Source of the DNA: Negaprion brevirostris
Taxonomy: Eukaryota
Length of the DNA stretch: 64,000 nt
Assembly: GCA_030324005.1 (NCBI GenBank)
Contig: JARDVH010000143.1
Location: forward strand, 20,277,660 to 20,341,659
Direction: 5' to 3'
Part shown: positions 45,344 through 47,491 of the stretch, piece by piece
Position numbering within the stretch: the first letter of the stretch is position 1
How the letters are laid out: the number at the start of each line of letters is the position of its first letter
Program-made: the position numbers and the translations under genes
The notes under the pieces: generated by a model
The model's input: only the letters and a program-made list of their open reading frames with translations
Told to the model about the DNA's origin: nothing
Database searches by the model: none

Positions 45344-46658
45344 ACTAGTTTAATTAAACTAGGATTGAGTGTCTGTGGAATTGAGACCATCAAAGGGGCT
45401 ATGTGTGAAAAGTAGGCACTTGAAGTAAAGAGGACCAAGTTGGATATTCTACAATACAGCATGAGTAGAAGTTTGCATTCAGAGATAAGTGAGGATTTGG
45501 AATTTTAGTTGTTGCATTTCAAAGGAAAGTAAGAAGGAGTTTAAAACTTAACAAAGGTTATAATAAATGAGGCAAAATTATTCAGTTCTATTTTACCAAA
45601 AGTAATGGTCATTTGAAGAACATAAAAGTTTTTTGATATTATGGGATAAGTACATTTCAAAGAGAGATTAGAACATTGTTTGTAAAAACGAAAGAGGAGA
45701 ACATTTTTAAGGAAAGGTTGGGAGCTGTTCTGAGGGCACCCTGAAGTATGCTCTGTGCTCAAACAAATCTGTGACAAATGGCAGCGAGCATTTTGGAGCC
45801 TGTCAGTTGTTTTCTGAAAGCAGCGTTTTTCTCTAAAGCTTTTTGGAATTCCCCATAACTGTTGCCTTAAAGGATTGTTTATTTTTGAGTTTAATCAAGA
45901 AAGAATCTATAGGGGAAATATTCTTTAAGACTAACTTTTCACTGTGTAAGTGTGATCTTGTATGTTTAAGTTTTCTTTCCTTTTGTTGATAAATTTTTTA
46001 ATTCACTGTCTACAATCTTCAAAAGATGTTATGGAAATTGTGATTCTTGCCTTCAGTGCACATATCTTCTCATAATAAAATACAAACCGAAAATTGTGAT
46101 AGCTTGCCAAGTTTCCCCTTGGGACTCAGTTAGCCCAGCAAATACCCACTTCCATATCTAAACACTACAATTTTTAAAAGCATTTTAATGCTGAAGATAC
46201 CAGTGTGTTTTGCTACACTGTATATTAAAATGTTCTGATCACATGCTATAAATCATGTATTATTAGTTATAGCTGCTATTTTACTCCTAATCCAGATGAA
46301 TTTAGCTGAGGCTAGTGATACTCAAGCATCAAATGAAATTTAAATTTCTTAAGGCATTGTTGAAAGGCAGGTTTCTCAGGTGAATTCAGCAAGTGTACAG
46401 ATTTTTATAACCTCCCACAAGTCATCTATCAATTACAATGCTTAAAAGGTCTATCATTATGTAAATTAAAGAGTGATAATGAAACAATATGAGCACTTGA
46501 TTCAAAATTTAAACATTTGTTTTATGTAAAAAGAATGAAATCAGTATACTTCCGTGAAAATGTTATCATGTTGCCTTGCCGCAATGTTGAAGATTTGGAG
46601 TCTTCTTGGTGCCACTGTTGTGAACCCCCTAACAGTAGCACAGATAGCATAACCAACC

Positions 46659-46961
46659 CGGCCTTTTGGCTAAGATCAAGTGTAGTGTCGACATGCTGCG
46701 CTTGGTTGAAGTCATTAGGTTACATTTCAGCAATTTTTTCAAGCAGTATCTCGGTCTTTTGGCTAAGATGCAAATAAGATCAAGAATTGGAGGAGGAGCT
46801 ACACCTACGCCAATCAGCTTGGATCATGTAGATCAAGCCCAAGACAGGTGGTGAGAGCCCTGTCTTGTCAGCTTGGATCGGGAATGTCCCAACTTGTTGA
46901 GACTCTGAATTGGCTTTAATTTGACTAGATTGGAATGGAATAAAGTTTAAAAAAAAAGCAC
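46659..46961 (+). mobile_element. Retroposed element with U2 snRNA-derived segments (5'-truncated Tx1/Keno-like 3' end or SINEU-like element)
   Basis: 46659-46686 equals U2 nt 10-37 exactly. A second U2 piece lies at 46749-46769. AATAAA at 46939-46944, A9 at 46949-46957. Direct repeat taaccaacc at 46650-46658 and 46962-46970. Confidence 0.75.
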
Positions 46962-47194
46962 TAACCAACCGAGTTCCAATCCTCACCACCAACTGTAAGG
47001 AAAGTACAGTCCAATATGCAACTGAAAGGGGAGAAATAGGGGAAATAAGAATTCATCTTCTACCTTTAAAAATAACCATTTCCCATGTGCTCTTTTGAAT
47101 GAAAATTACTTGCAATGAGACAACTTAACAGTCTCTTTATTCTCACATCTAATATTTGTGATGATAATGTTACATTGCTTATTTTTTTAAGTGA

Positions 47195-47491
<297 letters not shown>

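Follow-up and report, generated by a model that had tools for sequence, protein, structure and literature searches.

SINEs with an snRNA-derived head have been described under the names SINEU-1, -2 and -3. According to the available parts of the original paper (Kojima 2015, PMC4494074), they occur in crocodilians only, with none outside this group, and were moved by Tx1-Mar. Most copies of SINEU-2 lack a target site duplication (TSD), and the transcription of SINEU elements was left open since U2 has no internal promoter (same source, available parts). No further case of a U2-headed SINE is mentioned in the available parts of PMC7245038 and PMC4758252, and no description of a non-crocodilian one was found in the literature searched, whose scope did not extend to Repbase Reports, Dfam and most subscription papers. 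The non-LTR element Keno, of the Tx1 clade, has a published 3' target in U2 genes (PMC6136364 and PMC4640811, in the parts available).

The window analysed here is a stretch of 64,000 nucleotides from Negaprion brevirostris. It carries, in an intron of a semaphorin-3-type gene, a 300-nt insert that is a 5'-truncated copy of a dispersed retroposon family. Our reading (probability roughly 0.7) is that the element is a non-coding, poly(A)-tailed retroposon composed for the most part of U2 sequence, likely copied by a Keno-like LINE and likely transcribed from rare source copies located at the Keno site of U2 genes. The insert lies on the same strand as the host gene, in the intron preceding the exon at 47258-47377, and has the following parts:

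46646..46658, + strand: TSD, 5' copy, one base shorter than the 3' copy; single copy at the empty site of sequencing run X1
46659..46689, + strand: head, U2 snRNA nt 10-40, branch-point recognition sequence included; 30/31 identical to the genome's own U2 gene (L031)
46693..46721, + strand: arm with 25 predicted pairs to head nt 11-39, G-U in many cases
46722..46745, + strand: linker with a T6 run, a degenerate Sm-site-like sequence; a 12-nt deletion here is private to the window copy
46746..46775, + strand: second U2 piece (nt 7-27, stem-loop I) with an extended stem, then ATGCAAAT
46774..46827, + strand: module 2, a diverged duplicate of module 3 and of nt 27-80 of sister family B; the predicted hairpin is the same, its letters differ
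46831..46938, + strand: module 3, corresponding to sister family B nt 31-132, with a 9-bp stem and a stem IIb-like hairpin inside
46939..46957, + strand: AATAAA, GTTT and A9 tail, common to the family
46957..46970, + strand: TSD, 3' copy
47258..47377, + strand: downstream exon of the semaphorin-3-type host gene, with AG/GT ends; E 2.5e-13 to Semaphorin 3A chains

For the U2 reference we used L031, a U2 gene of this genome that ranked first among 48 Rfam matches. All pieces listed in the original prediction were found where it had placed them: 46659-46686 is identical to U2 nt 10-37, the second U2 piece (46749-46769) matches at 20 of 21 positions, the third lies at 46775-46784, the 9-bp stem is formed by 46840-46848 and 46859-46867, the repeat occupies 46814-46825 and 46868-46879, and AATAAA and A9 are at 46939-46944 and 46949-46957. 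However, contrary to the claim, U2 sequence continues past nt 37. The match resumes after one substitution, so that 46659-46689 agrees with U2 nt 10-40 at 30 of 31 positions. The change at nt 38 is A-to-G, the G being a minority variant (8 of 76 copies), and what had been taken for a Keno signature is a substitution at the level of the copy. The largest hairpin of the element (46660-46721) had been absent from the original list. The family head comprises U2 nt 1-40, full-length copies begin at nt 1, and the 12 nt missing from the linker of the window copy are found in the family. The 8-mer ATGCAAAT sits where the branch-point sequence would start and is kept in 65 of the 71 copies listed. At 46768-46775, about 190 nt before the 3' end of the element, it forms a perfect octamer motif, the snRNA enhancer element, which could act on a downstream unit in head-to-tail arrays, or be there by chance. 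Rfam gave no match over the window at the gathering threshold, and at the level of E-values U2 was the only notable one within the element.

Contigs of four sequencing runs were aligned to window positions 46200-47450. Run X1 has a contig of 2,760 nt that spans the two flanks, with 52 of 853 letters different, and in which a single letter separates 46646 from 46959: the element is absent and the target single. This empty site shows that the duplication predicted around taaccaacc is a real TSD, 13-14 nt long, with a 1-nt loss in its 5' copy. Contigs of runs X2, X4 and X5 cross from the interior of the element into the 3' flank with 2-3% other letters, indicating that the insertion is common to those organisms. 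Being absent in X1 and present in X2, X4 and X5, the window insertion can serve as a presence/absence marker for related organisms. Words of the family were present in 20 of 24 listed runs belonging to 12 studies; among the listed runs with such words none is recorded as RNA, and six that may be RNA contain some of the words. Most family copies have no clear TSD; a TSD score of at least 9 was reached by 9 of 54 copies with clean flanks, compared with 16 of 400 shuffled pairings. An extra 5' G, as might come from cap copying, is seen in a few copies, but in L129 it belongs to the TSD and the idea was dropped.

When the genome was searched with the element, 2,826 candidates were obtained, and the 40 places that were scored had 87-100% identity. 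A 27-mer of the body had 792 exact matches against none in the control; we infer a family of a few thousand copies. Among 30 loci chosen by a body motif (two of them, L080 and L081, overlap), 22 start within U2 nt 1-26, four are truncated in the body and four are hidden by gaps. This anatomy fits the alternative that had been offered from the start, an independent SINEU-like family. The reverse sample, 30 of the 269 loci with the perfect U2 28-mer, ran into the SINE body in 27 cases and into a LINE in three. Two subfamilies are distinguishable: one (n=31) lies 3.4%, the other (n=24) 10.3% away from the consensus, which is identical to U2 at all 36 positions of nt 5-40. The SINE is about 320 nt long and non-coding, its longest stop-free frame having 64 codons. 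Judged by eye, there is a loose likeness of the head and the arm to A and B boxes; an internal Pol III promoter was rejected in view of the T4, T6 and T4 runs inside the element, which argue against Pol III transcription. Many copies in the set L061-L120 contain or abut assembly gaps, and full-length copies and array-resident sources are for this reason probably under-counted. Pieces of SINE A, SINE B and the LINE also form head-to-tail clusters, by impression more than the density of these pieces would lead one to expect (L023, L012, L086, L127, L139, L180, L190, L203, L209, L214 and L244).

An older neighbour of a copy in L079 led to sister family B (1,689 candidates), a rearranged and diverged U2 whose body matches U2 nt 41-160 at 93 of 119 positions (z 19). 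Module 3 of the window copy (46831-46938) aligns with B at 82 of 101 positions (z 16), whereas its direct match to U2 is weak (49/74, z 2.2), so the link to U2 rests on family B. Module 2 (46774-46827) aligns with B at 34 of 54 positions (z 5.2) and with module 3 at 32 of 48 (z 4.6); judging from these alignments, modules 2 and 3 are an internal duplication. The linker region 46690-46748 was tried as forward U2 or B sequence and rejected, the alignments not being significant (p 0.28-0.52). Compared with antisense U2 by plain identity, the arm gave 19-20 matches in 29 positions, a borderline value (p 0.07 for the window copy, 0.011 for the consensus), and 46693-46721 probably derives from the U2 head by inversion and decay. 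Most of the body is old U2, made up of the arm, which is predicted to fold over the head with its branch-point sequence, of another stem-loop from U2, and of modules 2 and 3, which go back through family B to nt 41-160.

The head-arm duplex has a predicted energy of -33.2 kcal/mol, and none of 5000 shuffled arms paired as well; the structure z scores were -3.2 and -6.2. Branch-point bases 33-38 are predicted to be paired with probabilities of 0.8-1.0 in the element, as against mostly 0.0-0.1 in U2 itself. In 93 copies or fragments, the non-CpG variants found in at least 10% of copies preserved the pair in 6 of 6 cases, compared with 37 of 177 for private variants, the shared pair-preserving variants being few and mutually dependent. 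The six include a swap between a C-G and a T-A pair (31 versus 24 copies). The lineage shows evolution by stacking of U2 pieces under selection for RNA structure. That branch-point masking is the purpose of the head hairpin is suggested by the predicted fold, and we give it about even odds.

The candidate partner is a LINE whose ORF1 contains zf-CCHC (zinc-knuckle) and ZCCHC3-type RNA-binding domains. RVT_1 is present too, and two homologues carry PF00078 plus PF13966. No Pfam match to an endonuclease domain was obtained among 12 LINE fragments, and none of 18 long stretches held an intact ORF2. A U2 piece was found at the 5' end of 19 of 30 LINE copies. At four LINE 5' ends (L149, L151, L152 and L156) Rfam identified stacked U1, U3 and U2 pieces, and two SINE copies (L019, L027) contain a short similar piece, by eye only. 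In L146 and L226 the LINE 5' end follows U2 nt 1-35 behind spacer DNA of the U2 array, a junction that recurs in dispersed copies. At the other end, LINE tails are joined to U2 nt 39 in L238/L163, L166, L216, L244, L242 and L248; the LINE tail in L060 joins nt 43, and the other LINE tails are dispersed. By junction and domain content, as read from the sequence, the LINE is Keno-like.

A connection between SINE and U2 genes came from a search for an A-run followed by the published Keno target with at most one mismatch, which found 19 places compared with one in the control. Six of them are clear tails of SINE families A and B joined to U2 nt 39 (L237, L240, L241, L247, L250 and L251), and L246 is a probable one; the chance expectation for SINE tails at this site is about 1e-3 in total. 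The rest comprise six clear LINE tails and a probable seventh, a bare A-tract, a head junction and three unrelated places. The U2 piece after the SINE tail is followed by another A-rich tail in L237, L240, L247, L250 and L241 and is enclosed in a 12-nt TSD in L251, the pattern that 3' transduction from a source copy in a U2 gene would leave. Template jumping could be an alternative source of nt-39 tail joints outside arrays. Two other pattern searches for tails running into U2 gave no match in the first case and only LINE tails, no SINE tails, in the second.

Upstream junctions were sought among units with U2 promoter-side DNA. Twelve were found: five carry an intact U2, four a LINE piece after nt 35-39, and three the SINE. 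In L232 a seamless SINE head (nt 1-48) stands behind canonical U2 upstream DNA, with a LINE fragment cutting in at nt 48; in L215 the SINE is entered after U2 nt 37-41 and the contig end terminates the locus; in L219 the placement of the SINE behind U2 upstream DNA is weak, being made across a gap. L214 contains a LINE and a SINE with their ends at one target word. A complete array-resident SINE, flanked by the U2 promoter and by U2 nt 39-191, was not recovered from this gappy assembly. The 3' flanks of dispersed SINE copies are not U2-like (2 of 68 match at 6 or more of 8 positions; mean 2.34 versus 2.15 in the control), indicating that homing is rare; a general preference for U2-like targets was rejected on the same figures. 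The originally proposed tie to a U2-targeting lineage has support in the relatives at the Keno site, with both LINE and SINE tails at nt 39; the argument from a break at nt 37 and the form of a LINE 3' UTR have not stood. On the best reading the two original ideas combine, in a SINEU-type element with relatives at the Keno site of U2 genes.

The U2 loci themselves were varied. Three genes (L032, L033 and L034; G000 C2094, C54082 and C154) carry an additional A just ahead of the branch-point sequence, and their bodies do not resemble the host U2; two are on tiny contigs and one beside a gap, and all three may represent non-vertebrate contamination of the assembly. L036-L038 (G000:C157:37354999-37356174) form a tandem array of a variant U2 with a 492-nt period, about 84% identical to the canonical gene and with C at nt 23. 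The same C is found in the head of 5 of the 30 best SINE copies, hinting at heads from more than one type of U2 gene. Among the U2 retrocopies L039-L058, many include about 35 nt of the 3' flank of the gene, which indicates copying from unprocessed pre-U2 RNA.

Taken together, mobilisation of the SINE by the Keno-like LINE appears highly probable, and transcription of the source copies by RNA polymerase II from U2 promoters probable, the promoter function of the U2 upstream DNA being assumed from its position. RNA polymerase II would start at the host U2 promoter and read U2 nt 1-38/40 into the element, and the transcript would end at the element's own AATAAA or at times slightly beyond it, in U2 nt 39 onwards. 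Reverse transcription would then be primed by ORF2 of the LINE, in most cases at sites chosen loosely and seldom in a U2 gene again, where reinsertion would renew the source. Supply of the head by the host gene would account for a consensus identical to U2 over nt 5-40 alongside inner U2 copies that drift. The arm (46693-46721) is predicted to cover the branch-point sequence, so that the RNA would not be a decoy of U2. The full scheme may be put as a self-renewing SINE cycle that needs no internal promoter, in which insertion at the Keno position (nt 38/39) would fuse the head seamlessly with the first 40 bases of the gene and the antisense arm would protect splicing; we regard it as an evenly balanced proposition.

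A different account keeps the SINEU-type family and the same Tx1 LINE as its mover. Transcription would be by read-through from assorted host promoters, template switching onto U2 snRNA would renew the heads, and the copies in U2 genes would be dead ends. The variability of the added heads speaks for it (LINE copies with U2 pieces that vary in length and with U1 and U3 pieces, double heads on the SINE copies L002 and L060), as do the repeated 5' additions of crocodilian SINEU-2 (PMC4494074, available parts) and the fact that no complete, promoter-bearing source copy was seen. Against it stand a head/body junction that is uniform at nt 40 across copies, and SINE tails that join exactly nt 39 and take the U2 piece to new sites. 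No tail joining U2 nt 41-49 was present among the 100 listed of 124 matches to a looser pattern, a weak control. We consider read-through unlikely as the explanation.

The proposal that the body is the 3' UTR of a Keno/Tx1 LINE which captured copies of its U2 target draws on the existence here of a Keno-like LINE that uses the U2 site, and on the adjacency of SINE and LINE in L127 and L214. It is largely refuted and hardly credible now: a 5-kb LINE copy compared with the family by blastn gave no E better than 0.18, the 3' ends of LINE and SINE share only a poly(A)-signal word of 9-10 nt, and extension of 30 copies by 1.5 kb upstream met ORF2 C-terminal sequence in none of them (0/30). In addition, the 5' ends cluster at U2 nt 1-26 and the body was traced to U2 through family B. 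Very improbable, too, is that a variant U2-like RNA gene of the host gave rise to the copies as passive retropseudogenes, with no selfish element involved. The pair-preserving variants, which show selection on RNA structure, the head of L232 directly behind U2 upstream DNA, and the plain U2 retrocopies common in this genome would all suit such a gene, but the two successive subfamilies and the older sister family, the stacked and duplicated modules, AATAAA and poly(A), and a branch-point sequence that is masked or mutated fit a SINE lineage.

This family shares with SINEU elements an snRNA-derived head (here U2 nt 1-40), a poly(A) tail, a length below 500 bp, a high copy number and internal oligo-T runs, as well as stacked heads, partial duplications and a mixture of insertions with and without TSD (SINEU data from the available parts of its description). 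In both systems the Tx1 partner itself bears U1/U2 heads and the SINE shares its target preference, here nt 39 for both. Family B is similar to SINEU-3, a rearranged, near-whole U2 in the available description. The differences are in the host lineage; in the shared target, which is the Keno site of U2 genes here and Mariner-N4_AMi in crocodilians; in the body, which is traceable to U2 here and given as unknown for SINEU-1 (both in the available parts of the paper); in the arm folding over the head; and in the U3 pieces among the LINE heads. An origin independent of the crocodilian SINEUs is presumed. With Keno the system has in common the 3' junction at U2 nt 39, seen in the partner LINE and in 6-7 SINE copies, but the SINE has neither an ORF nor a LINE UTR and nearly all of its copies are dispersed. 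The window copy itself does not end at U2 nt 39; it sits in a semaphorin intron with an unrelated TSD. Reliance of a promoter-less element on the promoter of its target gene recalls the co-transcription of R2 with 28S rRNA (PMC4494074, available parts). Here, in contrast, it is a non-autonomous element that rides, its target is an snRNA gene transcribed by Pol II, and a self-cleaving step would be unneeded since the host piece is kept as the head.

The element in the window is an ordinary-looking insertion of an unusual SINEU-type family for which there is concrete evidence of homing to U2 genes. As far as the papers searched go, it extends this class beyond crocodilians. The loci L215, L232, L241, L251, L237 and L240 make the question of SINEU transcription directly testable, as candidates for sources inside U2 genes at the LINE target site. 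If true, the self-renewing cycle answers how SINEU elements get transcribed, and the SINEU class would have arisen independently at least twice in vertebrates.
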